Positions 47,405 through 64,000 of a stretch of DNA of 64,000 nt are shown one piece after another. How positions within the stretch are numbered: the first letter of the stretch is position 1; each line of letters starts with the position of its first letter. The notes under the pieces were generated by a model. It was given only the letters and a program-made list of their open reading frames with translations, was not told where the DNA came from and made no database searches. The stretch is from an uncultured virus (IMG/VR IMGVR_UViG_3300031555_004022) (lineage: Duplodnaviria > Heunggongvirae > Uroviricota > Caudoviricetes), in the IMG/VR virus record IMGVR_UViG_3300031555_004022; one strand, 5' to 3'. The position numbers were made by a program, and so were the translations under genes.

Positions 47405-47420
47405 ACTTTTCGTTCTCCTT

Positions 47421-48182
47421 TCATTCGACCGTACCGTAGAGGTACAGGTCATCCAGCAGAGCCTTTGCGCGCTCTGCGTCGGTTTTCTTCCGTGCTTCCT
47501 CTGCCTTCAGTTCTTCGGGCAGGTTCTTGTAGCTGCCGAACAAGTCGCTGGCGGCTGCCGCAGCAGCCGGGGCTTCCTTCGTTCCCAGCTCGAAATACTC
47601 CGCGGCCTTTTCGCCACGAAGCCAGGTTTCAGCGGACAGCAGATCCGCCACCTGTTCGCGGGTCACGCCCTCGCGGGCCTTCCCCATGTAGACGTCCAGC
47701 ATGGACTCCTTCGCGTTGTCCAGCTGATCGGCGACGTCACGAAGGTCGCGGGAGTTGCCCGCGGTGTACGTCCAGGGGTCATGCACCATGATCTGGGCGC
47801 CGGTGTTGACCACGATCTCGTCGCAGCCCATCAGGATCACGGACGCAATGGACGCGGCCATGCCGTCGACCTGGCCGGTCTTTTTGCCCGTGTGGCGCTT
47901 CAGGACGCTATGGATCGCCAGGCCCGCGAACACGTCGCCGCCGGGGCTGTTGAAGTAGATCGTCACCGGGGCGTTCGGATTCAGACCGTTGACGAAGTCG
48001 GCGATCTCCTGTGGGCAATGTCCGCCGAAATACGCAGCGGTCAGTTCATCGTCGACGATGTCGCCGTACAGGTACAGCTCCGCGCCATTTTCCGTGGCCT
48101 TCATGTCGATGTAGCCGCGGGTCACGACCTTCCCCTGCCGGGTTGCCTTCATGTCGTAGCGTTTAGTCTTCAGATTCTTCAT
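47421..48182 (-). CDS. ClpP-like prohead protease
   Basis: NSPGGDVF, AASIASVI, MVHDP, ETWL. Confidence 0.9.
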   Translation of the reverse strand: MKNLKTKRYDMKATRQGKVVTRGYIDMKATENGAELYLYGDIVDDELTAAYFGGHCPQEIADFVNGLNPNAPVTIYFNSPGGDVFAGLAIHSVLKRHTGKKTGQVDGMAASIASVILMGCDEIVVNTGAQIMVHDPWTYTAGNSRDLRDVADQLDNAKESMLDVYMGKAREGVTREQVADLLSAETWLRGEKAAEYFELGTKEAPAAAAAASDLFGSYKNLPEELKAEEARKKTDAERAKALLDDLYLYGTVE

Positions 48183-51287: not shown

Positions 51288-51847
51288 GCTTCCACCTTGC
51301 CCTTCGCGTATTTCAGGAACTTGTTCTCCGGTTTTTCGTCTTTCGCCTTCGGTGCCACCAGACGGCAGCGTCCGGCGATCGTCAGGCCGAAGTCCGTGGC
51401 GCCCTGGCGGCATTGCTTCCACAGCTTGTCCTGTTGCTGAAGCAGCGCGGCGCGTTCCTCATTGACGACCATCCTGGTCTCCACGATCTTCTCGCCGGTT
51501 TCCGGGTCGATCTCCGGCTTGCCGTCCAGGTCGGTCTTGTACCGGCGCTTCTCCACCATCAGCGGCAGCTCGTCGATCGCCTGGGTCATGGCGACATAGT
51601 CTGCTTCCGCCTTCACCAGGCGGCCCAGGGCCTCGCAGTCCAGGTTGGTCATTATTTTCAGGTCGATCAGCTGGGCGGCCAGCTCCTTGAAACGGCGCTT
51701 TTGCTTCTTGTCCAGCCATGCAGGCGGGGCGACTTTGTCGGCGTCAGGGTGTAGTTCCTGGGCCTTCCGCAGCTCGATCTCCGCCTTCGTCAGGTGTTTC
51801 CGGCCTTTCGCCTGCAACAGGGCGATCGGCTCCTTCTTTCCGGCCAT
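51284..51847 (-). CDS. Terminase small subunit (P27 family)
   Basis: KHLTKAEI..R, PP.WL, FGLT...R. Confidence 0.85.
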   Translation of the reverse strand: MAGKKEPIALLQAKGRKHLTKAEIELRKAQELHPDADKVAPPAWLDKKQKRRFKELAAQLIDLKIMTNLDCEALGRLVKAEADYVAMTQAIDELPLMVEKRRYKTDLDGKPEIDPETGEKIVETRMVVNEERAALLQQQDKLWKQCRQGATDFGLTIAGRCRLVAPKAKDEKPENKFLKYAKGKVEA

Positions 51848-51898
51848 GTCCCCACCTCCTTCGGTGTCAGATTCTGACACTTCCCTGGGGCGGGGGCG

Positions 51899-52405
51899 TC
51901 AGATTTTCCCGTGGGGAGTTTTCTCCACGAAAAAGGGGGGCGCGACTAAACCAGCGGCCGCGAATACTTTTTCGATACCCCCTCGGTCTGCAAACCACCT
52001 GTCCCGCAGCGCCCGCAGCCGCTTCTGGCAGGCTGCCATGCTCTCCGGCCCCGCCTTGTACATTGCGGTGACGCGTGTATGGTTGGCATTGCTCAATGGG
52101 AACAGGTTGAACGGGTCAAGCCGTAAATCCCAGTCTTCCTCCAGCTCTACAATGTGGTGAACTCTGTCCGCTTCGACCAGCTCCTGGTCTTCGTAGTAGG
52201 CCAGGATGTCGATGCCGTCAAAGACGTCGATCATGCGCTGTCTCATAACGCGCCACGCGCGCGAACAATAAAAGGCGGCTGACATTTGGCTGCGCTCCTG
52301 GCGGTTGTAAATCATGTGCCTGCTGCCATACCGAACACGGCAGGCCGGGCACATATCAATGCCTTGCTGGATGGGCTTTCCACAGCGGCACAAATGCAGC
52401 AGCAT
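51899..52405 (-). CDS. HNH endonuclease (packaging-associated)
   Basis: FYCSRAW...VHHI.....W..RLD..NL..L...NH... Confidence 0.75.
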   Translation of the reverse strand: MLLHLCRCGKPIQQGIDMCPACRVRYGSRHMIYNRQERSQMSAAFYCSRAWRVMRQRMIDVFDGIDILAYYEDQELVEADRVHHIVELEEDWDLRLDPFNLFPLSNANHTRVTAMYKAGPESMAACQKRLRALRDRWFADRGGIEKVFAAAGLVAPPFFVEKTPHGKI

Positions 52406-52528
52406 TTTCTTCTCCTTCCTGGGGCTTCCTGTTTTTCCGGATTTACGGCGGCCCTTCTCTGGGCCTCTTGGCGGCCTTCTGGCGGGTCTTTTTTGACCGC
52501 GACCGCCAGCCCTCGGAAACGAAAAAAG

Positions 52529-52645
52529 ACAAGCACCGGGTGATTGATTGCTCTTTCACTCGGTGCTTGTCTTGCACATTTCCTGTCTGATATTCTATCG
52601 CCTGGGGCCGAAAAACGCCACCCCAGGTTTTCCCCACGTTTTTAC
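52529..52645 (-). promoter_or_regulatory. Late promoter/leader element, copy upstream of the packaging genes
   Basis: Repeat of 28135-28249; TAGAAT -10. Confidence 0.75.
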
Positions 52646-52662
52646 GCTCGGTTTTCAGCCCT

Positions 52663-53106
52663 TCAGCAGCTAATCCCGTTGACGCCGAAAAGCCGCACGG
52701 CCATTTGCCGCATGATCTCGTCGCACCACCTGCGGGGGCTGTTTCTCCCGCTGTTCATTGCGTCCGCGATCTGTTCGTAGGTCTGGCCCTTGATATATCG
52801 CCGCTCGAAGGCGTCGACCTTGTAGGAATAGCCGCCGGCGATCGCCGCCACACGTACCGCTGCCAGGGCGCGGTCGATTTCAGCGACCACGGCAGCGGTG
52901 TCTTCGCGGCTGCTTCTCAATGCGTCCAGGATCGCGCCCAGGTCGGTCCCGGACGGCTCCGATCCTCCGGGGCTGCCTTTTTGGGCGTATTCGTGCAGAA
53001 GCTGATAGTTTTCAAGCAGGCGCGCCGTCAGGGTCAAGCCCTGGGCGCCGTTGGCACTCTTGTCGGCCATTTCGGGCCGGATTTTGGGGTCGTTTCTGTT
53101 TTCCAT
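52663..53106 (-). CDS. Putative late transcriptional activator (RinA/ArpU-like position, C-terminal HTH)
   Basis: LLENY..L; RYIKGQTYEQIAD...MAVRLFG; last gene before the packaging module. Confidence 0.6.
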   Translation of the reverse strand: MENRNDPKIRPEMADKSANGAQGLTLTARLLENYQLLHEYAQKGSPGGSEPSGTDLGAILDALRSSREDTAAVVAEIDRALAAVRVAAIAGGYSYKVDAFERRYIKGQTYEQIADAMNSGRNSPRRWCDEIMRQMAVRLFGVNGISC

Positions 53107-53141
53107 CGTTTACTTCCTCCTTTCGGCCCGGTAGGTCGTTT

Positions 53142-53873
53142 TTACAGGCCGGGCGGCGGATCACGCCACCATTTGCTTCGCGTGTCCTCGTCGGTTTTGT
53201 CACCCTGGGCCGCCTTTTCCTTCTCCAGCGCGATCCGGCGCTTGGCTTTGTCGTAGGTGCTTTCCTTCACCTCGAAACAGATAAACCGGCGGTTGTTCCG
53301 GATCGCTGCGACGCCGGTGGTGCAGCTGCCGCCGAACAGGTCGACGACCAGGTCGCCCTCCTGGGTGGAATCCAGCAGGCAGCGCTCAATGATCGCCACC
53401 GGCTTCTGGGCCGGGTGGATTTTGTCACCGTCGGTACCGGCAGCGCCCACAGAAAAGCCGTTTTCCCGCCACACGTTGGATCCACCACGCCGCAGGCCGG
53501 TGTTCTTCGTGCCGTACAGGATGAATTCGTGGGTGTAGCTGTAAAAGCTGCCAGGGCCTGCTCCCTTGTCCCAGACGATCAGGTTCTTGACCGGCAAATA
53601 CTCCGCGAAGATCGGGTAGTAGAACGCGTAGCCGCGCCAGTCCATGAAAATGTAAAATTCCCCTTCCGGCTTCAGCACGCGGTTGATCTCCCGCGCCAGG
53701 GCCTTCCAGAACGGCTTGGTGATCTCCAGATCAGCGAAGTCTCCGCGGGTTCCGTTCTGGGTCAGCCCCTGGAAGTAGGGGGGGTCGGTGATGATCGCCT
53801 GGACGCTGCCGGTTTTGATCTGCCGCAGGCCGTCCAGGCAGTCCATGTTGTAGATTTCATTCTCTTTCAGCAT
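53142..53873 (-). CDS. N4/N6 DNA methyltransferase (beta class)
   Basis: TDPPY, HPAQKP, DLFGGSCTT. Confidence 0.9.
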   Translation of the reverse strand: MLKENEIYNMDCLDGLRQIKTGSVQAIITDPPYFQGLTQNGTRGDFADLEITKPFWKALAREINRVLKPEGEFYIFMDWRGYAFYYPIFAEYLPVKNLIVWDKGAGPGSFYSYTHEFILYGTKNTGLRRGGSNVWRENGFSVGAAGTDGDKIHPAQKPVAIIERCLLDSTQEGDLVVDLFGGSCTTGVAAIRNNRRFICFEVKESTYDKAKRRIALEKEKAAQGDKTDEDTRSKWWRDPPPGL

Positions 53874-54099
53874 TTCGCACTCCTTCCAGCGTCGCGGTGT
53901 AGGTCGTTGTGACGACCTGGATCGCCGTGCGCTGCATTTCTCCGCAGCTTATGCGGTCTTCGACCGGTATGCCCGCGGCTTCCTCCGCGGTGTCGGTTTT
54001 GTTGCAGTATGGCCGGGCCGGGCAGCCGGGGCACAAGCCCGCGGCGCCCAGAGCGTCAAACAGCCAGTCCTGTTCCTCGCGGGTGGCAATGATTACCAC
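53857..54099 (-). CDS. Hypothetical Cys-containing protein
   Basis: Tightly packed ORF; CPGCP...C. Confidence 0.5.
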   Translation of the reverse strand: MVIIATREEQDWLFDALGAAGLCPGCPARPYCNKTDTAEEAAGIPVEDRISCGEMQRTAIQVVTTTYTATLEGVRNAERE

Positions 54100-54100
54100 G

Positions 54101-54605
54101 TCACGCGCTCCTTTCCATCAGGTGCAGGGCCATCCGGCGCCAGCTTTCGGCCTGCTCCTTCGCTTCGGCCAGCTGTTCCTCCAGCTGGTCGGTCTCTGCT
54201 GCGCGGCGGACGTCCCGCCACGGCTTGGGGTCGTAGGTGTTCCGGGGTGCTTCTTCCTCCAGGCCCAGGGCGCGCCGGATCGCGTCGTCGATCTGGGCCA
54301 TTTCCTCGTCGGTCACGTGGCCGCAGCACTTATCCAGGCGGCGGGTGTCGACGGTCTTGATCTGATCGCACAGGGCGATCGAAGGCTTCGGGGCGCTGCC
54401 GATCTCGATGTGCAGCCCACCAGGGTCAGGGCGGTCTCGTTTGGTGGTCAGATACACCACCATGCAGGTGTTACCCCCCCCCCGCGGAAAAATCGCTGAC
54501 AATGACGCCAGGGCGTCCGGGCTGCTGTTCGTGGCCCCTGCTGATCTCCATGTCCCGCTCCACGTAGTAAATATCGCCGCGGGTGATTCTCCGGTTTCTG
54601 TACAT
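54101..54605 (-). pseudogene. PemK/MazF-like gene frameshifted at a G10 tract
   Basis: RGDIYYV...GHEQ..GRPGVIVS in one frame and VVYLTT...ALCDQIKTVD..RL in another; C10 at 54474-54483. Confidence 0.8.
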
Positions 54606-54610
54606 TGTGG

Positions 54611-54805
54611 TCACCATTTCCTTCCGTAGCCGTAGTAGTTCCGGCGCTGCGCGTCGGTCATGTTTCTGACGTTCTTCTTCTCGATCCATTCCAGGATGCT
54701 ATCCGCCACCAGCATCAGGATCAAGCCAGGCGTCGCAAGCATTACGCCCAGGGCGCCCAGCAGATAGCCCAGGCTGGCGGTGATCCGGGTGATCAGTTTC
54801 TTCAT
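54611..54805 (-). CDS. Small hydrophobic protein
   Basis: GGAG RBS, ATGA overlap, TM-like segment. Confidence 0.5.
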   Translation of the reverse strand: MKKLITRITASLGYLLGALGVMLATPGLILMLVADSILEWIEKKNVRNMTDAQRRNYYGYGRKW

Positions 54806-54978
54806 GTGTTCTCCAGTTCCTCGAACTCCGCGTCCAGCGGGTCGATTTCTTCCAGGATGTACACGGCGCCATGCAGCAGTCCGGCAGCGATCACAGCGAT
54901 CAGCATGACGGGCAGTTCGATCACCAGGATCAGAACGTCGCGCACTTTGTCCCAGGTCTTTTTCAGCAGTTCCTTCAT
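54802..54978 (-). CDS. Small hydrophobic protein
   Basis: MKELLKKTW...; ATGA overlap with the parB stop. Confidence 0.5.
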   Translation of the reverse strand: MKELLKKTWDKVRDVLILVIELPVMLIAVIAAGLLHGAVYILEEIDPLDAEFEELENT

Positions 54979-56279
54979 TCGTCCATTCCCTCCAGGCTCC
55001 AGGCCGCCACCAGGGCGTCCAGCATTTCCAGACAGGCGCGGGCCTGCGCTTCTTCCAGTCCGGCGTTCACGACGCACCAGCGGATCATGCCGATCCGGTC
55101 GGTCTCGGTTTCCACGGACTTCTCGATCTCTGCGGCGATCTCCGCCTTGTAGGTGGTCACCGGCCCCGCCACGGGTTCGGCTGGCTTGACGTTCTTGTTC
55201 CGGTACATATCGCAGGCGGTGGTCTTGTCCGTCCGATCCATGCAGGTGTCCCAGTTTGCACAGCTGAAGCACAGGGACGTCAGCGTCTTCGGCTCCGCCT
55301 GGGTTACCGGTGCAGCCTTCGCTGCTGCCTTTGCTTCTTCGGCCAGCACCTGGCGATCGACCACTTCGCACCGGAAGTCGCAGGTCGTCCGCTTCAGGCA
55401 GCCCTTGCAGCAGCCAGCGCACCCGACCAGCTCACCCTTCCGCATGAAGTTCGCCTTGATCACGCCGTAGTGTTCACAGGGGCCGTTGGCGACCTGGCAG
55501 TCCCTGGACGCCCAGGGGTTGCCGTCGTCCTTCGGCTTCGGTGTTGCCTGCCTGGCTTCGCTGGCGTCCTTGTGGGTGATCTCCGTGCCGGTGTCCTGGG
55601 CGCGCTCGAAGGCGGCACGCTGCGCGTCTTCATCCATGCCCGCCAGGGCGTAGGCTGCGGAGAATTTCAGGCCGCCGGTGTCCAGCAGTTGCTTCAGCTC
55701 TGGGATCAGGTGGCCGGTGATCCGCTCGATCTGGGCGATCTTCGTGGTGGACTTGTTCAGGATCGCGGCGATCACGTCGCGGAGACGTCCGCTTGTCAGG
55801 TCGTACCCGGCCAGCTTCTGGCCCTTTGCCCGCATGGCTTCCAGGGTGGCCTTCAGGGTGGTGTACTCCTGGAGCTGGTCGCCGATGGACTTGACGCGCT
55901 GGCTGTTTGCGGCGATCAGGTCAATGGTTTCTTCCTCCGGCGTCTTCTTCGCCCGGACGTTGCAGGTCGCCACGCTGAACTCGGTGTGTCCCCGGCTGAC
56001 CAGCAGCTTCAGGGCCTCCCATCTGCGCTCACCGCTGACGATCCGGTACTGGCCCGCCGGGGTGGGGTCGTAGATCACGACCAGATTGTCCAGCAGGCCG
56101 GACATCAGAATATGGCCCGCCAGTTCCTCGATCTCGACGATCTCGTAGAAGTTGCCCTCGTTCCGGTACAGCTGATCGATCGGCAGGTCTTTCGTCCGGA
56201 ACTTTCCGGAAGGGCCGGAAGGCTGCGCGCCTTTGCTGGCCGCGTTCAGGGTGTCCAGAATGTTGTGTCCTGTTGCCAT
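54975..56279 (-). CDS. parB: ParB-family protein with Cys-rich C-terminal region
   Basis: GLLDNL.V, YRIVSGERRW.A; downstream of parA. Confidence 0.85.
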   Translation of the reverse strand: MATGHNILDTLNAASKGAQPSGPSGKFRTKDLPIDQLYRNEGNFYEIVEIEELAGHILMSGLLDNLVVIYDPTPAGQYRIVSGERRWEALKLLVSRGHTEFSVATCNVRAKKTPEEETIDLIAANSQRVKSIGDQLQEYTTLKATLEAMRAKGQKLAGYDLTSGRLRDVIAAILNKSTTKIAQIERITGHLIPELKQLLDTGGLKFSAAYALAGMDEDAQRAAFERAQDTGTEITHKDASEARQATPKPKDDGNPWASRDCQVANGPCEHYGVIKANFMRKGELVGCAGCCKGCLKRTTCDFRCEVVDRQVLAEEAKAAAKAAPVTQAEPKTLTSLCFSCANWDTCMDRTDKTTACDMYRNKNVKPAEPVAGPVTTYKAEIAAEIEKSVETETDRIGMIRWCVVNAGLEEAQARACLEMLDALVAAWSLEGMDE

Positions 56280-57070
56280 TACTTCAGCACCTCCATGATC
56301 TCACGCGCCAGGGCGGCATATTCCCGCGATACCTTGCAGCGGGGGCTGTACGACGTGACCGGCTCCTGGTTGATGCTGGCCCGCTCCACGATCACCGACC
56401 GGCTGACCGTGGCGTCAAACGCCTGGCAGCGGTCGAAGGATTTCAGCCACTTCTCGAACTGATCGGAGGCGTCGTTGCGGCCCTTCATGGTGAAGAACGA
56501 CCGCAGCACCAGGGCGTCGTTCAGGCCGTGCAGCTGCTCGATCGTGTCGGCCATGTGGCCCAGGGCGTCAGCCTCGAAGCCGCCCAATTTCACCGGCACG
56601 ACCACCAGATCAGCCGCCACCAGGGCGTTCAGGACGGTCATGTCAAGCAGCAGGCCGCAGTCGACGATCACGTAGTCATACAGTTCCTGCACCTCCGGTG
56701 TGCCCAGGGCGGTCTGTAGCCGTCGCACCTGGTCGTTCTCGGTGTCGGTGGCGATCTCCGTGTTCGCGTCCATCAGGTAGCCGTTCGCCGGGATCACGTC
56801 GACCCGGTAGAAGCCGGTCTTCTTGTCTCCGAACACTCTGGACTGCTTCACAACGTCCGCCACGGTGACCTCGCCATGAACAGCAGACAGCAGGGCGGCC
56901 AGGCCCTTGTCCTCCGGGTCTGCCACGCCGTACAGGGTGGACAGGTTGCCCTGTTGGTCGGCGTCGATCATCAGGACACGGTGATGCGCGCCCAGGATGC
57001 AGCCCAGGGCCGCGGCGGTCGTGGTCTTACCGGCGCCGCCTTTTTCAATCATTACAGCGATTATTTTCAT
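56279..57070 (-). CDS. parA: ParA/Soj ATPase
   Basis: EKGGAGKTT, IDADQQGN, YDYVIVDC. Confidence 0.9.
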   Translation of the reverse strand: MKIIAVMIEKGGAGKTTTAAALGCILGAHHRVLMIDADQQGNLSTLYGVADPEDKGLAALLSAVHGEVTVADVVKQSRVFGDKKTGFYRVDVIPANGYLMDANTEIATDTENDQVRRLQTALGTPEVQELYDYVIVDCGLLLDMTVLNALVAADLVVVPVKLGGFEADALGHMADTIEQLHGLNDALVLRSFFTMKGRNDASDQFEKWLKSFDRCQAFDATVSRSVIVERASINQEPVTSYSPRCKVSREYAALAREIMEVLK

Positions 57071-57117
57071 ATTTCAGGCACTCCTTCACGTTTTTTGGTC
57101 TATTTCTTGTGATTTTT

Positions 57118-57558
57118 TCACTTTCTCCAGCCATCCAGGGACGGGAAGCCCCAGCGCACCTTCAGCAGGTCGGCGTCTTCCGCCATTTTCTCGCACGGCT
57201 TCAGGTTCATGTACTCGGTCAGCAGGTGGATCGCTGCGTTCGCGCTCCATACGACCGCCACGAAATACCCGGCGGCCTGGAGCTGCCGCAGCCAGTCCTT
57301 CTGGTCTTCGCTGGGCAGGTTCTTCCCGTACTTCATTTCGATCCGCAGGCCATGATATACGCCCGCCGGATAGTCCAGGATCAGATCGGGGACGCCAGGC
57401 TTCAGTCCCAGCGACTTCAGAATACCGGCGGTTGCCTTCGTTCTCTTGCCTTCGTTGGGGACGTGGTACAGGTTCTTCAGGCCGGGGTATTTGCCCTGGG
57501 CGTAGCTGGCCCACTCGATCACGGCTTGCTGTTCACTCGTTTCGCTTGCTCCTTGCAC
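57118..57558 (-). CDS. VRR-NUC domain nuclease
   Basis: HVPNEG.R, G.KPGVPDL, IEMK, Q..W...L...GY. Confidence 0.85.
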   Translation of the reverse strand: MQGASETSEQQAVIEWASYAQGKYPGLKNLYHVPNEGKRTKATAGILKSLGLKPGVPDLILDYPAGVYHGLRIEMKYGKNLPSEDQKDWLRQLQAAGYFVAVVWSANAAIHLLTEYMNLKPCEKMAEDADLLKVRWGFPSLDGWRK

Positions 57559-58616
57559 TTCTTTCTTCCTCCTTTCCTGATCAGGTGAAGGCAATCCAGG
57601 GGCACCTTGTAGGCCCGGCCCTTGCTTCCGGTCTTCCGGATCACAGCCTGGTCTCCTTCGGCGTACTCGATCAGCTCATAGACCGCCTTCTCGTCATAGC
57701 CCAGATCCTCCGCGTCCCGGATGTGTACCAGGTCGCCGGGGGCACAGGCTCGTCGCAACTTGGCGTATATGTAGGGCAGGCCGTTGAACTCGTTGATCCG
57801 GCGCTCGATGCTCTTTAGCCAGCAGCCAGGGGTCACGGCTCTGATCATTTCGGCGGCGTCTTCGTAGTTTTCGGCCATCTTTTTCGCCTTGTTGTGGCTG
57901 AATGTCTGGTGATTTTTCCGTTCTTCGGGCTTTTTCAGGTTCTTGGAAGCGCACCACCGTTTCTTGCCCTTCGGGTCTTTGGTGATGTAGTGGGCCAGGC
58001 CAGACAGGCCGTTCTCGTCATAGTCCAGGCGGCGGGTCTGATTGCGGCGTCCCAGCTTCCACGTGCTTTCCACTTCATCCATCGACAGCTGGCCGTCCAT
58101 GACGATGTGGTGGTGGCACCTGATCTTGTGGTTGTCGTCCTCTGACCATTCCGTGACATAGACGTACTTGGCAGGGGGCAGGCCCAGCTTCTTCCGGCGG
58201 TAGTTGATGCGCTTGATGTACTTCTGCATATTTTCCAAGGCTTCCTCCATGGAGCCGGGCAGGTTCCGGTCGGTATAGACCAGGGTGGCCCAGATGTCCT
58301 GGCTGGTGAAGTTGGTGTTGATCAGGCGCTCACAGTTCTTTCTGGCGTTCTTGTCCTTCAGGTTCCGCTGGGCCTGGGCATTGTAACCAGGACGGCGGCC
58401 TGCTGCCGGGATGTCTTCACGCTTTACGAACTCCGGATAGATTTCCAGCTCGACCTGATCACCGGCGTCGATCCGCTTCGTGGCGTATATAGCGCGCTTA
58501 CCTTTGCGGATCAACTCCCGGACGAACAGGTCATCGTCCTGGTCTATGGTTCGATCGAAGGCTGCCTCGTAGTCGTAGGGAATGAACGGGGCGGGCTTCT
58601 TCCTTGGCTGCTTCAT
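57519..58616 (-). CDS. HUH-type (rolling-circle Rep-like) protein
   Basis: WATLVY (motif I), CHHHIVM (motif II), LAHYITK (motif III). Confidence 0.7.
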   Translation of the reverse strand: MKQPRKKPAPFIPYDYEAAFDRTIDQDDDLFVRELIRKGKRAIYATKRIDAGDQVELEIYPEFVKREDIPAAGRRPGYNAQAQRNLKDKNARKNCERLINTNFTSQDIWATLVYTDRNLPGSMEEALENMQKYIKRINYRRKKLGLPPAKYVYVTEWSEDDNHKIRCHHHIVMDGQLSMDEVESTWKLGRRNQTRRLDYDENGLSGLAHYITKDPKGKKRWCASKNLKKPEERKNHQTFSHNKAKKMAENYEDAAEMIRAVTPGCWLKSIERRINEFNGLPYIYAKLRRACAPGDLVHIRDAEDLGYDEKAVYELIEYAEGDQAVIRKTGSKGRAYKVPLDCLHLIRKGGRKKCKEQAKRVNSKP

Positions 58617-58717
58617 TGTCTGGCCTCCTTGTAGGCATCTGATCTCACGAAGATTTCCGTGACTTCGGGCTATCCATTACAAGGCCGCCATACCGGGTGT
58701 CTTCCCGGTCGTTTTCG

Positions 58718-58746
58718 TTGACAATTACCGCGCCTTCTGGTATAAT
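58718..58746 (+). promoter_or_regulatory. Consensus sigma-A promoter, antisense to the phage operon
   Basis: TTGACA-N17-TATAAT exact consensus. Confidence 0.9.
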
Positions 58747-58751
58747 AGAAG

Positions 58752-58829
58752 GGCAATATTTAGGTATTGCAGCCTTGTCGGCGTGCCGCCTCCACTCTCA
58801 AATGTCGGGCGGCGCGCCGCTCTTTTTTT
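58752..58829 (+). ncRNA. Putative antisense small RNA of about 78 nt
   Basis: Between the consensus promoter and a GGGCGG-CGCG-CCGCTC-T7 terminator; no RBS-led ORF. Confidence 0.7.
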
Positions 58830-58986
58830 ATGCGCTTTTGTCGTCTTCCTCATTGTTCCGTTCCGCCTCCTTGCCCATCAGGTAGCCCACGAAGTAGGCC
58901 TTGTCGCGGGTGGGCAGTTTGGTGAACTTCTCCGCCACGGTCTGCGCGACCGTGGCGTTTTCGTTTTTCTGGGGTTCCTGGGTCAT
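58828..58986 (-). CDS. 52-aa phage protein, paralog of 63808-63930
   Basis: GGAGGTG RBS; KFTKLPTRDKAYFVGYLMGK. Confidence 0.6.
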   Translation of the reverse strand: MTQEPQKNENATVAQTVAEKFTKLPTRDKAYFVGYLMGKEAERNNEEDDKSA

Positions 58987-58990
58987 GTTC

Positions 58991-59209
58991 TCACCTCCGC
59001 AGGCTGAAGCCCTTCAGGACGCCGTTCTCAAACACGGGCGCGACGTACTTCTTGCTGGGTTCCACGATCACGGCGCCGGGCACGTCAGGGTGGAAGCGCA
59101 GGCCGATTTCGCTGCCGTCGACCAGCTCAATCCAGATCGTGCCGGTGTCGTCGACGCCGGTGATCTTCTTGACGCCGATCACTTCCACATTGTTCACAGT
59201 CTTTTCCAC
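58991..59209 (-). CDS. Hypothetical protein
   Basis: AGGAGGTG RBS, GTG start. Confidence 0.5.
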   Translation of the reverse strand: MEKTVNNVEVIGVKKITGVDDTGTIWIELVDGSEIGLRFHPDVPGAVIVEPSKKYVAPVFENGVLKGFSLRR

Positions 59210-59252
59210 AGTTTCACCTCCTGGGGTTGGTTTCCATTTATTTCCACTTTCA

Positions 59253-59582
59253 TCACGACGGCATACTTCCGTCCGGGTGTGCTGCGGTAGTGTGCTGTTG
59301 GCGGCGTTCCCGCAGGGCGTCCGCTGCTGCCTTCCTGTCTTCCTCGGTGGCCTTCTCGTTGATGATCACCAGGCCGCCCTGGGTTCTCGCGATCGCGGCA
59401 CCGACGCCTGCGGCGGCGATCGCGGTGAAGATGTTGCTGACAAAGTCCATGATGTACTGATCGTGTTCGTCGTGATCCTTTTCCTGTTCCTTCAGCATAC
59501 CGATCGCGGCGTCCTCCAGGAAGTTGCACGCCTTCAGGATGTCCTCGTCTTCGATGATCCGGAAGTTCTGGCCGTCAATCAT
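59253..59582 (-). CDS. Hypothetical protein
   Basis: GGAGG RBS, ATGA overlap. Confidence 0.55.
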   Translation of the reverse strand: MIDGQNFRIIEDEDILKACNFLEDAAIGMLKEQEKDHDEHDQYIMDFVSNIFTAIAAAGVGAAIARTQGGLVIINEKATEEDRKAAADALRERRQQHTTAAHPDGSMPS

Positions 59583-59998
59583 TCCGCCGCCTCCGTTCCT
59601 CTCATGTCGTGGACGATCCGAAGGGCGCGGCCCTTCTCGTCGATCTTGCGGTGGTCAAAATAGACGACCTTGGCAATGCCCAGCAGGTCGGGCAGCTCCG
59701 AAGGTCTGACCGCGCGCATACCAGAGTATTCGATGTTTCGACGGCTGAACAGCTGGACGCCTTCGATGTAGTTGGCAGCGCACACGGTGCCGTCGGGGTA
59801 TTCGTGGATTTCATGGACGACGGTGGGATCATTCCACCATGCCCGGCCATTGCTGACCAGCCACTTGTCCTTGATCTTGCGGAAGGCATAGTAGCCGGTG
59901 GTCACTTCCGGGCCGCCCTGCTCCTGTTTGCACTTTCTGGCCTTCTCGTCCATAGCCTTCAGCCAGGCCGGGCTGAAGGTGATCGCAGTTTCTGCCAT
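59579..59998 (-). CDS. Hypothetical protein
   Basis: AGGAGG RBS; in operon. Confidence 0.55.
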   Translation of the reverse strand: MAETAITFSPAWLKAMDEKARKCKQEQGGPEVTTGYYAFRKIKDKWLVSNGRAWWNDPTVVHEIHEYPDGTVCAANYIEGVQLFSRRNIEYSGMRAVRPSELPDLLGIAKVVYFDHRKIDEKGRALRIVHDMRGTEAAE

Positions 59999-60000
59999 TG

Positions 60001-60216
60001 TTACCTCCTTGTAAAGTGTTCCGGCGTGTTTTTATACACGCAGTTCATATTCTTGTCCATAGCGCCGACGACGTGCATGATCTCACCATTGTCCATGCGT
60101 CGCAGGGCGATCTCATAAATGTACGGGCAAACAATATCCACAGCGCCGACCGTTCTGTCGTTATAAACGACCGGCACCCTGTCCTTGAATGCCTGCTGCG
60201 CTTCTTTCCAGGTCAT
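60001..60216 (-). CDS. Hypothetical protein
   Basis: GGAGG RBS, ATGA overlap. Confidence 0.55.
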   Translation of the reverse strand: MTWKEAQQAFKDRVPVVYNDRTVGAVDIVCPYIYEIALRRMDNGEIMHVVGAMDKNMNCVYKNTPEHFTRR

Positions 60217-60425
60217 GCTTTCTGGGCCTCCTTCTTCTCCCGGCGCTTCCGCCGGTTGTATTCAGGACACGCGAACGGCTCCAGGTCGTGGCACTTTTCG
60301 CAGCACGCTTTGCAGGTAGCCTGCCCGAAGCGCTCATAGCCGCAGGGCCTCGCCCGCTCGGTCTGATCCGGAAAGACTTCGCCGCAGATGTAGCACCGGA
60401 AGCCCGCCACGGGTTTCTTTTTCAT
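60213..60425 (-). CDS. Small Cys-rich (Zn-finger-like) protein
   Basis: CYICG...C...CKACCEKC. Confidence 0.55.
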   Translation of the reverse strand: MKKKPVAGFRCYICGEVFPDQTERARPCGYERFGQATCKACCEKCHDLEPFACPEYNRRKRREKKEAQKA

Positions 60426-60727
60426 GCGGTGCCCTTCTTTCTCCTGGGCTTTCCGCCATCCGGACGGCGGGCCATCTTTGCGGCCTCCATGATCGCGCGC
60501 TGGCGCTGCTCCTGGGTCTGATCTTCAGCGAAGCACGGCAGGCCGCCCATGTTGGCAGCCACGACGCGGGCGTAGGTCAGACCGGTGACCAGGACGTCCT
60601 TCAGCAGCATGATCTGCGCGACCTGCTCCGCGTTGGTGGGGTCTTCGGGTCTCATTGCCTTCGCCCAGCCGACCGCAGCGTCCAGGTCTTCGGGTTCGAC
60701 CAGTTTGTAGCCTTTCTTCTGTTTCAT
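60422..60727 (-). CDS. Hypothetical protein
   Basis: Tightly packed operon ORF. Confidence 0.5.
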   Translation of the reverse strand: MKQKKGYKLVEPEDLDAAVGWAKAMRPEDPTNAEQVAQIMLLKDVLVTGLTYARVVAANMGGLPCFAEDQTQEQRQRAIMEAAKMARRPDGGKPRRKKGTA

Positions 60728-60732
60728 TTTCG

Positions 60733-61500
60733 TCACGCCACGAAATTGATCAGAACGATCGCCGCCAGGGTAGCCACGAAGGCCAGGGTGATGTTCTTCT
60801 GGCGGGCGCCGTCCTTTTCGCCGACCGTGCCCAGGAACAGCACGAAGGCGATCAGGCCCAGCAGAATGTTCAGAAAAATGATCATCGTGTTTTCTCCTTT
60901 CCTGATTTGTCCCGTTTCGGCCCTCCGTAGGCCATCATCGGTGACGCGGGTCAGCGTCAGACGGGATGGGCCAGGGCCGCCGTGATCGACGCCCTGGCCG
61001 TATAATTCGTAAAGCGTAGGCACCGGCAGCAGCCAGGTCACCAGCACCTTCACGGCGCCGTCGTGCCGGTCTTCTTCCTCCGGCTCGTCGGCGTCTGCGT
61101 ATTCTTCCATCATTTCCCGGATTTCTTCCCAGGCTTCAGCCAGGCCGGGCGCGTACTGTTCGTTGATCGTCTGGATCAGGGCGTTCAGCATTTCGGCAGC
61201 TGCGGCTGCTGCCTGGGCTACCAATTCACCGACGCGGCGAAGGGCGTCGTCCAGTTCCGCCACGGTGATCCCGGCGGCGTGGGCCAGCTGCGCGATCTGG
61301 AACTCCAACTCTTTACCGTTCCGGCGACCGGCGCCTATGATCACGGCCCGGCTGCGATCCCGTTCCTGGAGTATCTGTTCCTTGTCCATTGACGCCAGGC
61401 GGCGAAGGGTTTCGACGCCTTCGTCCATGGGGACGATCAGCTCGCCCGGTTCCATTTCCAGCTCCTGGGCGTCCGTTTCAATTATTCCGCCGTGGATCAT
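60733..61500 (-). CDS. Hypothetical protein; contains an internal RBS and ATG for a 50-aa two-TM protein (60733-60885)
   Basis: GGAGG RBS at the start; AAAGGAG RBS before the internal MIIFLNILLG. Confidence 0.55.
   Translation of the reverse strand: MIHGGIIETDAQELEMEPGELIVPMDEGVETLRRLASMDKEQILQERDRSRAVIIGAGRRNGKELEFQIAQLAHAAGITVAELDDALRRVGELVAQAAAAAAEMLNALIQTINEQYAPGLAEAWEEIREMMEEYADADEPEEEDRHDGAVKVLVTWLLPVPTLYELYGQGVDHGGPGPSRLTLTRVTDDGLRRAETGQIRKGENTMIIFLNILLGLIAFVLFLGTVGEKDGARQKNITLAFVATLAAIVLINFVA
60910..60966 (-). ncRNA. Type III hammerhead-like ribozyme A
   Basis: UCCCGUC / UGACGC-loop-GCGUCA / CCGAUGA U / GGCC-loop-GGCC / GAA ACGGGA. Confidence 0.8.
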
Positions 61501-61519
61501 GCGTACCTCCGAAGGTTGT

Positions 61520-61540
61520 GCCGCCCCTGGGCGGGGCGGC
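61520..61540 (-). promoter_or_regulatory. GC-rich hairpin downstream of VR2
   Basis: GCCGCCCC-N5-GGGGCGGC just past the target stop codon. Confidence 0.7.
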
Positions 61541-61546
61541 GGATTG

Positions 61547-62200
61547 TTAGATCATGGAGCCGATCAAGAAGCCGAACGCGACGCCAATGGAGTAGGTCGC
61601 GCCGTGGTTGTTGGCGACGCCGTAGCCGTTCACACCGCAGAAGTACGTGGTGGACGAAGACAACGGGGAGCGGGTGGCGTACCACCACGTCTCGCCGTTG
61701 AAGTTCTTGACGCGGTCGGCTTCGGTCTTGAAAATGGGCAGCTGTTCCTCGTCGGGGCCGTCGCACTCGGTGCCCCACTCGCCCCTGCCGAACATTTCCG
61801 TCGCAGAGGGCCGCCACAGCTTGTCCTCGGTGACGACTTCCTCGCCGCCGATCAGCTGAACGATCCGGCGGGGCGTGATCTCCGCCACCAGGTCGTCAGG
61901 CAGCAGGGCCAGGTCTTCGGTGTTCATGGTCTTCCGGTCGTCGGATTCTGCCCAGGACAGCAGCTTGCCGGGCAGGCGGTTGTACATAGGGCGCCGGGCG
62001 TGCAGGTCTTTCGCGATAAACAGGGCGCCGGTGTCGGTGACCTTCGCGGCCACGACCGTCTGGGCGATCCCGTCCTTGCCGATGTAGGTGATTTCGTCGC
62101 GTTCCTCCAGGAACTGGGTCAGGCGGCCCTGCTGGGCCTCGACGGTGATGTCGTGCCAGTTCACCGGCACCTGCTTCCACTTTCTCATAACTGCGGACAT
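61547..62200 (-). CDS. Stand-alone CLec/DUF6273-like protein, DGR target 2
   Basis: AGGAGG RBS before MSAVMRKW; DKLW.PS..E.FG, WWY.RSP...GVAFGF; contains VR2. Confidence 0.85.
   Translation of the reverse strand: MSAVMRKWKQVPVNWHDITVEAQQGRLTQFLEERDEITYIGKDGIAQTVVAAKVTDTGALFIAKDLHARRPMYNRLPGKLLSWAESDDRKTMNTEDLALLPDDLVAEITPRRIVQLIGGEEVVTEDKLWRPSATEMFGRGEWGTECDGPDEEQLPIFKTEADRVKNFNGETWWYATRSPLSSSTTYFCGVNGYGVANNHGATYSIGVAFGFLIGSMI
61567..61672 (-). repeat. DGR variable repeat VR2 (remote)
   Basis: 106 bp aligned without gaps to TR 30624-30729; 13 mismatches, all at TR adenines. Confidence 0.95.
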
Positions 62201-62228
62201 TGTTCTTTCCTCCTGATTGTTGGTATTG

Positions 62229-62396
62229 TTAGCCCTGGGCCGCTTCCGCGGGCGCGGGCTTGAATAAATGGTCATACTGGCCGTCCCGGTTCTCCCGGAT
62301 CGCGTTGATCAGCTCGTCCAGGCTGATCCCCAGGACGCCGACGACCTGCTGCTGCGGGGTCAGCGCCCGCTGCTTCTCCACGATGAACTCGTTCAT
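62229..62396 (-). CDS. 55-aa hypothetical protein
   Basis: GAGGT RBS; MNEFIVEKQRALTPQ... Confidence 0.5.
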   Translation of the reverse strand: MNEFIVEKQRALTPQQQVVGVLGISLDELINAIRENRDGQYDHLFKPAPAEAAQG

Positions 62397-62405
62397 GGGG
62401 TTACC

Positions 62406-63211
62406 TCACTTTATGGCGTATTTTTGGATTTCTGTCTGATCGAACGGCACCGGCTCCGCGACGCCGAACAGGGACAGCTGGGCGTCGTCCAGTCGGAACT
62501 GTTCGTCAATGTCGCAGAATCGCTCCGTCCGGGTGAATCGGTCGGTTGATTTGTTTGGTAGTGCTTGCAGCTCCAGCAGCCGTTTCCACAGCTCCGGGTG
62601 GTGGTCGTATAGGTGCCGCAGCTCCCGCCACTTTGCATTTGGGCAGAAGAAGCAGCCGTTTCGGGTTGTAAACTCATACGACGGAGAATACAGCCCCGCC
62701 TTCTTGCAGATCGCCACGGCGTCGGCTTCGGTCTTTCCGTACTTTGCCAGCAGGGACACTTTCGTCGTCCCGTCCAGCCGTGCCAGGCGATCAGCTTCGT
62801 CGTCGGCGATCCCGATGTACTGGATTACCTCGTCGTTTTTCCAGGCGGCTGCCTTGTACCGTTCCATGGGGCGGACTTTGCAATCGCGGTTTATGTAGCA
62901 GCGGCCACACAGCGGCCACGCCCATATTTTCCCCGCGTGCCGTCCACCCCCCCCCCGATCTCCTTCTGGAATAGGTCGACGAAGTTCTTCTCGCTCCTGA
63001 CGATGTGTACCTTGATCCCGTGCCCCTCCAGCCACGGGATCGCGGTGTCGTAGATAAAGGCCCGATGTTCCGGCACCTCCGCGCTGATCTCCTTGTCGAA
63101 CATGGTCTCGCAGTATAGGGCCTCGGTCAGCGGATCGCCATGTTCCACAGCCAGGATTGCCGACGCCATGCTATCTTTTCCGAAGGAACAGGACAGCACA
63201 TAGCGCTTCAT
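62406..63211 (-). pseudogene. PAPS-reductase-family gene frameshifted at a G10 tract
   Basis: SCSFGKDS PP-loop in the 5' frame; YIGIADDE..R and R.GCFFCPN in the 3' frame; C10 at 62947-62956. Confidence 0.8.
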
Positions 63212-63217
63212 TGTGTT

Positions 63218-63403
63218 TTAGCCCTCCCTCGCCAGCAGTATGTTCTCGGTGATTTCCACCTTCCGGATATGTTCGGGCGCGAACGTGTTCAGGGCTTTGT
63301 TCCAGGCTTCGGTCAGGTTTTGGGCCTTCACGGTGAAGCCCGTGGTGCCGCCGTTCACAAACGTGACGATCACGATGTATTTCACAGGGCCGCCTCCCTT
63401 CAC
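63218..63403 (-). CDS. Small hypothetical protein
   Basis: Operon ORF; GGGAGG RBS before an internal GTG. Confidence 0.5.
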   Translation of the reverse strand: MKGGGPVKYIVIVTFVNGGTTGFTVKAQNLTEAWNKALNTFAPEHIRKVEITENILLAREG

Positions 63404-63684
63404 AGCGTCTCGTATTTGCCGGTGGTGGGGTTCTTGTACTGGATTTCGGTGCAGCCCAGGCTGGCGCCGACGGTGTCCAAGGGCGCGAAGCTGTTGGAGT
63501 CAGAACAGACGCCCCAGAAATAGGTGACGCCGTCGTCGTCCTTGCAGCGGAACTTGTGGATCATCCGGGGCAGCATCTTCTCGATCTGCTCCCGGCTGTA
63601 CTGGTATTCGCAGCGGACGCGGCGGTCGAATTTCTCGCCGTCAAAGACGGCCTTGTTCTCGTGGGTGATTTTGAAAATAGCCAT
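63400..63684 (-). CDS. Hypothetical protein directly downstream of ribozyme B
   Basis: AAGGAGG RBS; FR..DDDG..YF.G...FAPLD...GCT.IQY. Confidence 0.65.
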   Translation of the reverse strand: MAIFKITHENKAVFDGEKFDRRVRCEYQYSREQIEKMLPRMIHKFRCKDDDGVTYFWGVCSDSNSFAPLDTVGASLGCTEIQYKNPTTGKYETL

Positions 63685-63718
63685 GTGTGCCTCCTTGCGG
63701 GGTTTCCGCTTTCATAGT

Positions 63719-63773
63719 CCCGTTTCGGCCCTCCATAGGCCATCATCGGCGGTGCGGATCGGCACCGGACGGG
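63719..63773 (-). ncRNA. Type III hammerhead-like ribozyme B
   Basis: CCCGUC / CGGUGC-loop-GCACCG / CCGAUGA U / GGCC-loop-GGCC / GAA ACGGG; stem I covaries with copy A. Confidence 0.8.
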
Positions 63774-63807
63774 TGGCACCGGGGATCCTCCCCGGTGCCC
63801 TCGGTGT

Positions 63808-63930
63808 TTACTTTGCGGTCTGCTTCTCGTCGTGCTTGCCGGTGACGTAGCCCAGGGCGAACTCCTTCGCCTCGTCGTCCAGCTGGGCGAACTTCTTCAG
63901 GGCTTCCTCGATCAGGTTCTTCTTCTCCAT
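63808..63930 (-). CDS. 40-aa phage protein, paralog of 58828-58986
   Basis: AGGAGGTG RBS; KFAQLDDEAKEFALGYVTGK. Confidence 0.6.
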   Translation of the reverse strand: MEKKNLIEEALKKFAQLDDEAKEFALGYVTGKHDEKQTAK

Positions 63931-64000
63931 GGTTACACCTCCTTCTTTTTGGGCGGTTCTCCGGTGGTCAGCCACGCCAGCCAGCACTCGCGGCAGGTGA

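Follow-up and report, generated by a model that had tools for sequence, protein, structure and literature searches.

A probable clade of hammerhead ribozyme variants with C at core position 4 in phages of gut Clostridia

HH-A and HH-B are two hammerhead-like RNA motifs encoded on the minus strand of a 64,000-nucleotide stretch of DNA (the window) from an uncultured virus of the Caudoviricetes (IMG/VR record IMGVR_UViG_3300031555_004022). They probably belong to a natural clade of self-cleaving hammerhead variants in gut Clostridia phages, where they would cut an early polycistronic RNA ahead of two ribosome-binding sites. The core of this clade is C3-C4-G5-A6-U7-G8-A9-U, compared with the usual C3-U4-G5-A6-N7-G8-A9. 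Members share a conserved fold with covarying stems, exist in circularly permuted forms, retain C4, and occupy a fixed position within a gene cassette.

Both motifs are 59 nt long (HH-A, 60967..60909; HH-B, 63775..63717; minus strand) and contain all parts of a type III hammerhead. In HH-A, the 5' strand of stem III (60966..60961) is followed by C17, the unpaired cut-site base (60960), stem I and its loop (60959..60942), the core CCGAUGAU (60941..60934, with C4 at 60940 and the extra U at 60934), stem II and its loop (60933..60919), GAA (60918..60916), and the 3' strand of stem III (60915..60910). HH-B (63717..63775) is organized identically; its C17 lies at 63768 and its core at 63749..63742. 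The minimum-energy fold of each motif is a three-way junction in which stems I and II are capped by loops and stem III is open.

The two motif strings were reported in an initial annotation of this DNA, and reading the minus strand confirms them as given. Their assignment to the type III architecture also holds. Both copies align over their full length to Rfam Hammerhead_3, and the only departures are U4>C and one inserted u after A9, exactly the two deviations that the copies had been said to share. The cut positions predicted at the time, 60960/60959 and 63768/63767, follow from the covariance-model and Rfam Hammerhead_3 alignments. Three of the six stem I pairs were said to differ between the copies without loss of pairing, and this is the case (U-A/C-G, A-U/G-C, and C-G/U-A). 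Set against C3-U4-G5-A6-N7-G8-A9-G10.1, the 5' core strand deviates by C4 and the inserted U and is canonical at the other six positions. The 3' core strand of both copies consists of GAA with an A paired to U (A15.1-U16.1), followed by C17.

HH-A scores 24.5 bits (E 0.0011) and HH-B 18.9 bits with Rfam Hammerhead_3, both far below the gathering threshold of 48.5 bits. These low scores carry little weight because U4 phage relatives fail the threshold too: those with the extra U score 24.8 to 36.5 bits, and one whose core is entirely canonical scores 31.7 bits. The sub-threshold matches surfaced only when 86-nt stretches were used as the query. At gathering thresholds, RT-2 is the sole Rfam match in the whole window and no hammerhead is reported; a search of 4 kb at E<=10 also returned no hammerhead match. 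A covariance model made from relatives gives 75.8 bits for HH-A and 75.4 bits for HH-B, while the next-best site in the window scores 15.3 bits. When three mismatches or fewer are allowed, the 31-nt core pattern is found twice in the window and is absent from 100 dinucleotide shuffles. No near match was found in the phage collection.

Pairing in stems I and III is maintained in two sets of relatives. In alignment A1 (24 distinct sequences), 93.7% of the cells in these stems pair versus 78.5% in shuffles, and pairing in slid controls is at most 49.4%. Both sides change in 10 of the 12 variable pairs. The second alignment, 52 distinct rows from metagenomes and genomes, was fitted to the model with stems I and III outside the fixed search pattern, and 94.6% pairing is observed versus 79.7%. 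Stem II pairing is uninformative because the search pattern fixed this stem. Every one of the 24 A1 sequences has GUC at the cut site, even though C17 was outside the search pattern. The 68 metagenome loci classed as type III carry GUC (64 loci) or GUA (4 loci), and GUC is present in 50 of the 50 C4 loci among them.

Loop I and loop II have 3-4 nt of complementarity that varies in concert among relatives, e.g., UCC:GGA, UGCC:GGCA (twice), UACC:GGUA, GCU:AGC, and AAU:AUU. Mean complementarity is 2.78 for a sequence's own loops versus 2.14 for crossed loops, a result reached in 1 of 5000 permutations. The complementarity in HH-A is just CC:GG, and 2 of the 24 parsed sequences have at most one complementary base. 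Perreault et al. (2011, PMC3088659) regard contacts between these loops as a usual feature of natural hammerheads that are fast.

The C4 core is present at 100 loci in viral contigs, of which 50 are type III, 42 are circularly permuted type I, and 8 are unclassified; 92 of the 100 have the full hammerhead shape. The permuted type I loci retain the same core bases as type III, and a single C4 core is found in both forms. Species-representative genomes contain 50 matches to the core pattern (13 type I, 9 type III, and 28 not hammerhead-shaped), the last group being chance matches in protein-coding DNA of GC-rich bacteria. Counted by source, the clade comprises ~90 loci from viral contigs, ~50 from metagenomes, and 22 from species-representative genomes, with gut Clostridia predominating, and many of these loci are close relatives whose counts are not independent events. 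The carriers are phages of gut Clostridia, mostly Oscillospiraceae.

Most core bases were fixed by the search patterns. Core invariance inside a single scan proves nothing because the pattern itself fixed those bases, and invariance was judged from control scans alone. With the frame C-N-GAUGAU-GGCC..GGCC-GAAAC, viral contigs contain C4 at 100 loci and U4 at at least 120. The same frame gives one match for A4/G4, none for G5A, and one for A6G, and neither of the single matches is hammerhead-shaped. In the subfamily of the window (stem II GGCC-NNNGGAG-GGCC), C4 with the extra U is found at 37 loci and U4 with the extra U at 3; forms lacking the extra U amount to one U4 locus and no C4 locus. 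C4 is the majority state in this subfamily, at 37/41 viral loci and 52/75 hammerhead-like metagenome loci. A metagenome search that permitted transitions at eight core purines returned 87 loci. The remaining core is canonical in 51 of the 52 metagenome C4 loci, the lone exception also having a broken stem I, and no locus in the metagenomes has any change at G5. Phage hammerheads with a normal U4 often have the extra U after A9 as well (at least 120 loci), and this insertion is not special to the C4 variant. C4 itself is evidently kept by selection, along with all other core bases, as judged from this distribution of sequences.

The gene cassette around each copy is composed of a hairpin, the motif, and a Shine-Dalgarno (SD) sequence. 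The gene upstream of HH-B ends with a TAA stop (63810..63808), and a GC-rich 11-bp hairpin (63775..63799, minus strand) lies directly 5' of the motif. A GC-rich hairpin (60969..60999, minus strand) is also located directly 5' of HH-A, where the upstream ORF has no stop codon ahead of the predicted cut. Downstream of HH-B, the SD AAGGAGG (63696..63690) and an ATG (63684..63682), both on the minus strand, start a 94-aa ORF, and this SD is unpaired in the computed fold. Downstream of HH-A, the minus-strand SD AAAGGAG (60900..60894) and ATG (60885..60883) start a 50-aa membrane-protein ORF belonging to phrog_20576 (E 1.4e-13 across the whole 49-position profile). Cuts just 5' of ribosome-binding sites had been proposed, in agreement with an SD and ATG shortly after each copy. 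The arrangement recurs among 38 distinct flanked type III C4 loci: all 38 have an SD and start codon no more than 60 nt downstream (median 20.5 nt), and 30 have a stable hairpin within 6 nt upstream of the motif.

Other identities were considered for these elements. An intrinsic terminator was rejected, as the hairpins have no U tract and neither is among the terminator-like sites. A protein-coding explanation was rejected, as HH-B is intergenic and follows the TAA. RAGATH-5 gave a truncated match of 11.7 bits to the upstream hairpin, which was lost with the whole hairpin as query and was dropped. In 25 kb of DNA from related phages, Rfam detected no other ribozyme at E<=0.01.

The segment between the predicted cuts is 2,808 nt long (60960..63767, minus strand). 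It holds the 94-aa, 61-aa, and 55-aa ORFs, a PAPS-reductase-like gene (phrog_424) that spans two overlapping frames, a DUF6273 gene, and most of a 255-aa ORF. The DUF6273 gene ends in the second DGR variable repeat (61567..61691), which is 79% identical to the template repeat across all 125 nt. In the first 106 nt of this repeat, 15 of 15 differences fall at a template T (A on the coding strand). A segment of ~2.8 kb with the PAPS-reductase-like gene and DGR target 2 had been claimed, and its length and content are borne out by phrog_424 and the DUF6273 gene with the second variable repeat.

HH-A and HH-B are in the same orientation on the gene strand, 2,808 nt apart, and related phage records have one to three copies. 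Their placement in an early operon, as first suggested, is plausible. A viral contig that is 100% identical to window positions 60259..64000 extends past the window end and has a 12/12 consensus promoter ~1.7 kb upstream of HH-B. No terminator-like site is found on the same strand between this promoter and HH-B. Within 58500..64000 there is no promoter-like site on the minus strand, and there are two weak minus-strand terminator-like matches (60193..60173 and 62710..62695).

Early genes would be transcribed leftward as one long RNA from the strong promoter just beyond the window. During synthesis, each motif would fold into stems I, II, and III, aided by a short pairing between loop I and loop II, and would cleave itself immediately 3' of C17. 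This would leave an upstream product whose end consists of a stable hairpin, 7-8 further nt, and a 2',3'-cyclic phosphate, and a downstream product with a 5'-OH followed by two hairpins and a free ribosome-binding site. The operon would thereby fall into pieces that are stable and translated independently of each other, including the 2.8-kb piece from cut to cut. Self-cleavage, its rate, the end chemistry, and the effects on RNA stability and translation are predictions from sequence.

RNA data are available as assembled contigs from four RNA-library runs of two studies, and contigs do not resolve RNA ends. In one run of study 1, the start of a contig falls exactly on 60960, the base with which the upstream product is predicted to end, and a further contig stops at 60938. 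In a second run of this study, the contig start is at 60963 and the contig end at 60943. One RNA-library run has no contig cover over 60917..61007, and a contig of the other study spans the HH-A site uncut (60796..61028). At HH-B, contigs of two study-1 runs end inside the motif (63746 and 63727), and among the matches listed no contig piece lies on 63747..63807. Even a weak hint of cleavage needs two studies stopping at one place together with a DNA run that continues, and the contig data fall short of this. Contig breaks are counted neither for nor against cleavage because the data fall below this bar and repeated motif words could also break contigs.

The motifs could instead be dead or nearly dead hammerhead descendants kept for their shape, i.e., an intercistronic RNA element that does not cut itself. 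This explanation is tentative and somewhat unlikely. Such an element might be an exonuclease barrier, an insulator that keeps the SD free, or a site at which an RNase or protein of the host or phage acts. Laboratory data in which changes at the conserved base U4 lower activity are in its favor and speak against self-cleavage of the C4 motifs (PMC3088659, PMC9901934). According to Perreault et al. (2011, PMC3088659), the U4C variant of a viroid "considerably decreases activity in vitro". Deep mutational scanning of a type III hammerhead is reported to give low activity for every single or double substitution within the CUGA turn apart from the C3/G8 swap, with insertions being outside the scope of the scan (PMC9901934). 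The fixed order of stop codon, hairpin, motif, and SD is also explicable by a purely structural role, and one RNA-library contig crosses HH-A uncut. However, an element kept for shape has no need for G5, A6, G8, A9, G12, A13, A14, an unpaired C17, or a covarying loop contact. Those bases are nonetheless kept in the C4 background, at 51/52 metagenome loci with no G5 changes and with GUC throughout, and the permuted type I form holds the same core bases.

Chance resemblance of GC-rich palindromic repeats or terminator-like hairpins to a hammerhead is scarcely credible. The region is ~60% G+C, and 28 of the 50 matches of the bare core pattern in species-representative genomes are not hammerhead-shaped, both as chance would have it. 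This explanation is already contradicted because the stems covary and permuted forms exist. The covariation of stems I and III is seen in two data sets, 92 of the 100 viral loci are full-shaped, 100 shuffles of the window contain no pattern match, and the hairpins, which have no U tract, are absent from the terminator-like sites. A further proposal, by analogy, is that the C4 and extra-U core forms an alternative working turn, as opposed to a weakened one, whose cleavage would be conditional (e.g., on the pH through protonation of C4, or on some metal besides Mg2+), by which the phage may time or tune the splitting of its early operon. Such conditional cleavage is distinctly unlikely. If it did occur, the cut at HH-A would decide between full translation of the stop-less upstream ORF and a non-stop message. 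A natural clade of self-cleaving variants is the preferred explanation.

Textbooks present the hammerhead core as catalytic RNA that hardly varies, and U4 lies within its U-turn. The phage clade has C at position 4, yet it retains the other catalytic bases, the triplet at the cut site, a putative contact between the loops, and both of the permuted architectures. Either the laboratory rule fails in the C4 sequence context, which would give insight into the turn, or a slow or conditional ribozyme is maintained by nature. A natural clade with C4 fixed appears to be new; in the openly accessible literature, a U4C hammerhead was found only in Perreault et al. 2011 (PMC3088659), and no C4 phage clade was found. 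The Rfam type III threshold misses the C4 RNAs as well as canonical phage relatives, and phage hammerheads are therefore under-annotated. The purpose of phage hammerheads is treated as open by the field (PMC6155905), and the repeated cassette of stop codon, hairpin, hammerhead, and SD offers a concrete model for it.

The type III hammerhead (Rfam RF00008, clan CL00010) shares with HH-A and HH-B three helices at a junction, C3, G5, A6, N7, G8, A9, G10.1-C11.1, G12-A13-A14, A15.1-U16.1, a GUC cut site, and complementarity between loop I and loop II. Unlike RF00008, HH-A and HH-B have C4 for U4, an extra U between A9 and G10.1, and a sub-gathering score. A viroid hammerhead with an extra core nucleotide was reportedly described by De la Pena and Flores in 2001, and its insertion is said to be tolerated. 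That hammerhead has another host and another sequence, whereas the phage extra U is widespread with U4 too. RiboJ-type synthetic insulators place a hammerhead just upstream of the SD and yield a defined 5' end whatever lies upstream. These are engineered, whereas in the natural phage cassette the hammerhead is also preceded by a hairpin. A 2015 study reportedly dealt with RNAs found near twister and hammerhead genes.

Clustered prophage hammerheads have been known since 2011, when Perreault et al. (PMC3088659) described them; several that flank genes in the operons of prophages cleave both in vitro and in vivo. As with HH-A and HH-B, these clusters have several hammerheads of the same orientation per phage transcription unit, around single genes or short blocks; processing of long phage RNAs was proposed, and natural core variants are present (PMC3088659). 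Those variants are different (U3-A8, A6C, an insert after A6, U13a, U15.1-A16.1, and U10.1-U11.1), and in the available text U4C is given for a viroid only, with no C4-fixed phage clade (PMC3088659). CCGAUGAU and CCGATGAT are absent from the supplements of that paper, for Dataset S1 in the part available (PMC3088659). Its Figure S7 presents an inactive RNA from Faecalibacterium prausnitzii M21/2 that is hammerhead-like but deviates in more than one respect, and which may or may not be the HH-A/HH-B motif (PMC3088659).

The U4C viroid hammerhead (Ambros and Flores 1998, via PMC3088659) carries an identical change, likewise at core position 4, and is described as less active in vitro and sufficient in vivo. 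It is a variant of one viroid, whereas the phage C4 is the majority state of a clade, is found in both type I and type III, and always occurs with the extra U. The A6C hammerhead of phage Bcep176 prefers Mn2+ (PMC3088659; Naghdi et al. 2020, PMC7151607). It differs from the C4 clade in that the change is at position 6 rather than position 4, and resembles it as a natural single-base core variant; the A6C change alters the working of the ribozyme and does not abolish it (PMC3088659, PMC7151607).

The window carries two 59-nt variants of the type III hammerhead, HH-A at 60967..60909 and HH-B at 63775..63717, both on the minus strand. The strings given for them in the initial annotation match that strand exactly. 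In each copy, stem III has 5-6 bp and its 5' strand terminates in G-U, followed by an unpaired C. Stem I has 6 bp and a 6-nt loop, the single-stranded run of the core is CCGAUGAU, and stem II has 4-5 bp (GGCC/GGCC) with a loop that ends in GGAG. The 3' side of the core is GAA, then the 3' strand of stem III with A first. A 31-nt core pattern, at up to 3 mismatches, matches twice in the window and has no match in 100 shuffles. Folded by itself or together with 60-70 nt of flank, each copy takes a three-way junction as its minimum-energy structure (ViennaRNA). In both folds a separate GC-rich hairpin precedes the junction, and the ribosome-binding site is unpaired.

At curated thresholds, Rfam finds RT-2 RNA alone in the window (30382..30604) and no hammerhead, and a search of 4 kb at E<=10 also returns no hammerhead. 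On 86 nt, the Rfam model Hammerhead_3 aligns end to end to both copies. HH-A reaches 24.5 bits (E 0.0011) and HH-B 18.9 bits (E 0.044), where the gathering score is 48.5. The alignment displays exactly the two core deviations read earlier from the sequence, C at U4 (C4) and a U inserted after A9 (the extra U). The threshold is uninformative here because phage type III relatives with U4 also score low, at 24.8-36.5 bits. These include L286, a locus with U4 and a fully canonical core (31.7 bits), and L180, L135, and L166, which have U4 and the extra U (24.8-36.5 bits). Such U4 phage hammerheads fall below the gathering score and are therefore missed by routine annotation.

From ~24 kb on, the window is a phage of ~60% G+C that is read on the minus strand. 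Small early genes and both hammerheads occupy 64000..59000. A rolling-circle-type replication initiator lies at 58616..57519, with ParA and a ParB-like protein after it, and the same strand encodes an HNH endonuclease, large terminase, portal, tape measure, and tail proteins. A diversity-generating retroelement (DGR) is made up of a reverse transcriptase (30644..29118, minus strand), the RT-2 RNA (119.3 bits in Rfam), a template repeat (30624..30748), and two variable repeats. Variable repeat 1 (31263..31387) has 13 differences, all at template T. Variable repeat 2 (61567..61691) is the 3'-terminal part of an early-region DUF6273 gene, 30 kb away, and in its first 106 nt 15/15 template differences are at template T (A on the coding strand). 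The G+C content is 40-48% in 1..24000 and 56-63% in 24000..64000, and the low-GC part encodes an integrase (18820..20211), a DnaC-like loader, and a helicase. The window may thus be two elements side by side or a chimeric assembly.

A viral contig that is 100% identical to 60259..64000 extends past the window end. Some 1.7 kb upstream of HH-B, its gene strand carries a promoter that matches the consensus at 12/12 positions. No terminator-like site is found on the gene strand between this promoter and HH-B. Within 58500..64000 there is no minus-strand promoter-like site, and the only two minus-strand terminator-like matches are weak (60193..60173 and 62710..62695). From the upstream promoter and the sparse minus-strand signals, one long early transcript can reasonably be inferred. 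On the plus strand, a perfect 12/12 consensus promoter with TG (58718..58746), opposite the gene strand, is followed downstream by a strong terminator-like hairpin and T run (58933..58957). The pair (58718..58957) lies just upstream of the replication initiator gene and is a candidate source of an antisense RNA of ~200 nt, as in plasmid copy-number control.

The predicted cuts, at 60960/60959 in HH-A and 63768/63767 in HH-B, enclose 2,808 nt. The initial annotation placed a PAPS-reductase-like gene and the second DGR target in this segment, and both do lie within it. Also on the minus strand of the segment are ORFs of 94, 61, and 55 aa, the DUF6273 gene with variable repeat 2, and most of a 255-aa ORF. 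The PAPS-reductase-like gene (62406..63211, minus strand) is split between two frames that overlap, with ORFs of 106 and 209 aa that both match phrog_424 (E 1.2e-07 and 7.9e-20). On the coding strand, the overlap includes ten consecutive G (62948..62957). The arrangement could stem from an error in sequencing or assembly, or from a slippery tract, or could mark a pseudogene.

The two copies belong to a conserved family with two circularly permuted shapes. An exact scan of IMG/VR viral contigs with the C4 core pattern CCGAUGAU-GGCC-N3-12-GGCC-GAAAC gives 100 loci. The bare pattern also matches by chance in GC-rich coding DNA, so a scripted shape check is needed, with minimum lengths of 3 bp for stem III and 4 bp for stem I. 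It classes 50 loci as type III, as in the window, 42 as type I, and 8 as neither; the last are 5 near misses (one stem mismatch or a contig end) and 3 chance-like matches. A type I motif runs from the 3' strand of stem I through the core, the hairpin of stem II, GAAA, the hairpin of stem III, and GUC to the 5' strand of stem I. In L003, L002, L031, and ~40 other viral type I loci, the stem I 5' strand (GUGGG/GCGGG) is followed by AGCCA-CCCAC, so the downstream product could refold as its own 5' hairpin once cleaved, or could compete with stem I beforehand. Among one genome per prokaryotic species, the pattern has 50 matches. The type III form accounts for 9 and type I for 13, almost all of them in assemblies of Oscillospiraceae, Faecalibacterium, Butyricicoccus, Subdoligranulum, Limiplasma, and other Clostridia. 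The other 28 are chance matches inside GC-rich coding DNA and lack the hammerhead shape. A planctomycete assembly (Tautonia sp., L255) has a type III C4 copy with loops identical to those of the gut Clostridia clade, which could be contamination or horizontal transfer. One phage with two good copies has a third, weak copy (L235, 1190..1250, minus strand; 18.9 bits). This copy keeps the CCGAUGAU core but has a stem II of 3 bp and changes in its GAAA strand, and it is probably in decay.

Stems I and III lie outside the search pattern. Across 24 distinct type III sequences aligned with MAFFT, the window's two included, standard pairs fill 93.7% of cells, compared with 78.5% when partners are shuffled and 49.4% at most when they are slid. 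Both sides change in 10 of 12 variable pairs. A second alignment, built with a covariance model from metagenome and genome loci (52 distinct rows, C4 and U4 mixed), gives 94.6% versus 79.7% and again 10 of 12, though it is model-fitted and so biased towards structure. At the cut site, 24/24 sequences of the first alignment have C as the unpaired base. Loops I and II share a complementarity of 3-4 nt that changes jointly across relatives: UCC:GGA in most, UGCC:GGCA twice, UACC:GGUA, GCU:AGC, and AAU:AUU. A sequence's own loops have a mean of 2.78 complementary bases versus 2.14 for crossed loops, a value reached in 1/5000 permutations (n=24, with two sequences mis-parsed by the script and two with at most one complementary base). 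Loop-loop pairing is described as the usual tertiary brace in fast natural hammerheads (Perreault et al. 2011, PMC3088659). HH-A and HH-B are real, conserved hammerhead-fold RNAs and a new natural variant.

Control scans of viral contigs used the same frame and differed in the core base sought. C4 with the extra U occurs at 100 viral loci (92 hammerhead-shaped) and U4 with the extra U at at least 120 (114/122 hammerhead-shaped among the matches listed), C4 without the extra U occurs at 10 (8 hammerhead-shaped), and A4 or G4, G5A, and A6G give 1, 0, and 1 loci, none hammerhead-shaped; many loci are closely related, and each scan fixed its own sought bases, so the weight lies in the between-scan comparison alone. 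In the subfamily nearest the window, whose stem II with its loop reads GGCC-NNNGGAG-GGCC, most viral-contig loci carry C4: 37 loci have C4 and the extra U, 3 have U4 and the extra U, 1 has U4 without it, and none has C4 without it. The extra U, regarded initially as a second deviation of the variant, is present in both copies but is not peculiar to them. It is common with normal U4 and is therefore a trait of the wider lineage. C4 is found mostly in the extra-U background (100 versus 10 viral loci), an association for which ancestry may suffice.

Whether C4 marks decay or a kept state is the central question. A degenerate metagenome scan, in which position 4 could be C or U and eight core purines could carry transitions, gives 87 loci: 51 with C4 and the rest of the core canonical, 23 with U4, one C4 locus in which GAAA is AAGA and stem I has a mismatch, and 12 rejected as coding look-alikes without hammerhead shape. 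A separate scan of metagenome contigs for any G5 change in the C4 form has no hits. C4 is thus about the sole core departure kept by these phages, and after its gain the remaining catalytic core is still preserved. Such preservation is hard to reconcile with a dead relic and fits an RNA whose catalytic core is under selection. At one type I locus with identical flanks, L106, L111, L116, and L159 have U4 and L054 has C4, so C4 arises from the ordinary form by a single change. The C4 hammerheads very probably descend from ordinary phage hammerheads, and these loci offer a natural one-base pair for testing.

Published data on changes at U4 speak against cleavage. Perreault et al. (PMC3088659) state that a viroid U4C variant 'considerably decreases activity in vitro' but is sufficient in vivo. 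The CUGA-turn portion of a type III mutational scan reports low activity for all single and double substitutions, with the C3/G8 swap as the exception, in a library without insertions (PMC9901934). A phage A6C variant was later shown to prefer Mn2+ (PMC7151607). Among RNA-library contigs at HH-A, one from run X1 starts exactly at 60960 and one from run X6 spans the site; they carry no weight either way on cleavage. On balance, the C4 hammerhead is rather likely to cleave still.

The surroundings of the motif recur. Among 38 distinct type III C4 loci with enough flank, many of them related, an SD-like run and start codon follow stem III within 60 nt in 38/38 (median 20.5 nt). In 30/38, a stable hairpin, at -12 kcal/mol or better in a 45-nt stretch, ends at most 6 nt from the motif, often with a stop codon just ahead of it. 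Because type III cleavage lies near the motif's 5' edge, it would leave an upstream product that finishes with the hairpin, 7-8 nt, and a cyclic phosphate, and a downstream product that starts with a 5'-OH, stems I and II, and then a free SD. Given how RNA decays in bacteria, both ends would probably resist exonucleases and 5'-monophosphate-dependent nucleases. In this model, transcription would continue through the cassette, yet neighbouring cistrons would be uncoupled in stability and in translation. Downstream of HH-B, a small hairpin (GCGG-AAACC-CCGC, 63709..63697, minus strand) lies directly 5' of the SD and is kept in related phages (L018, L071, L279, L280).

HH-A has a different upstream border. 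An ORF from 61500 (61500..60733, minus strand) has no stop before HH-A, crosses the hairpin and ribozyme in the motif's sole open frame, and continues in frame into a 50-aa membrane-protein ORF. The latter is an independent gene, since it has a full-length match to phrog_20576. The equivalent motif of two related phages (L233, L234) is likewise crossed by the ORF upstream of it, which stops 37 nt past the motif. With no stop before the cut, cleavage would leave a non-stop message. The read-through may be due to chance, given that a single frame of the three is open and that these phages are relatives.

In the literature searched, no account of a C4 phage clade was found. Clustered hammerheads that flank genes, and rare natural core variants, are already described in the 2011 account of prophage operons (PMC3088659).
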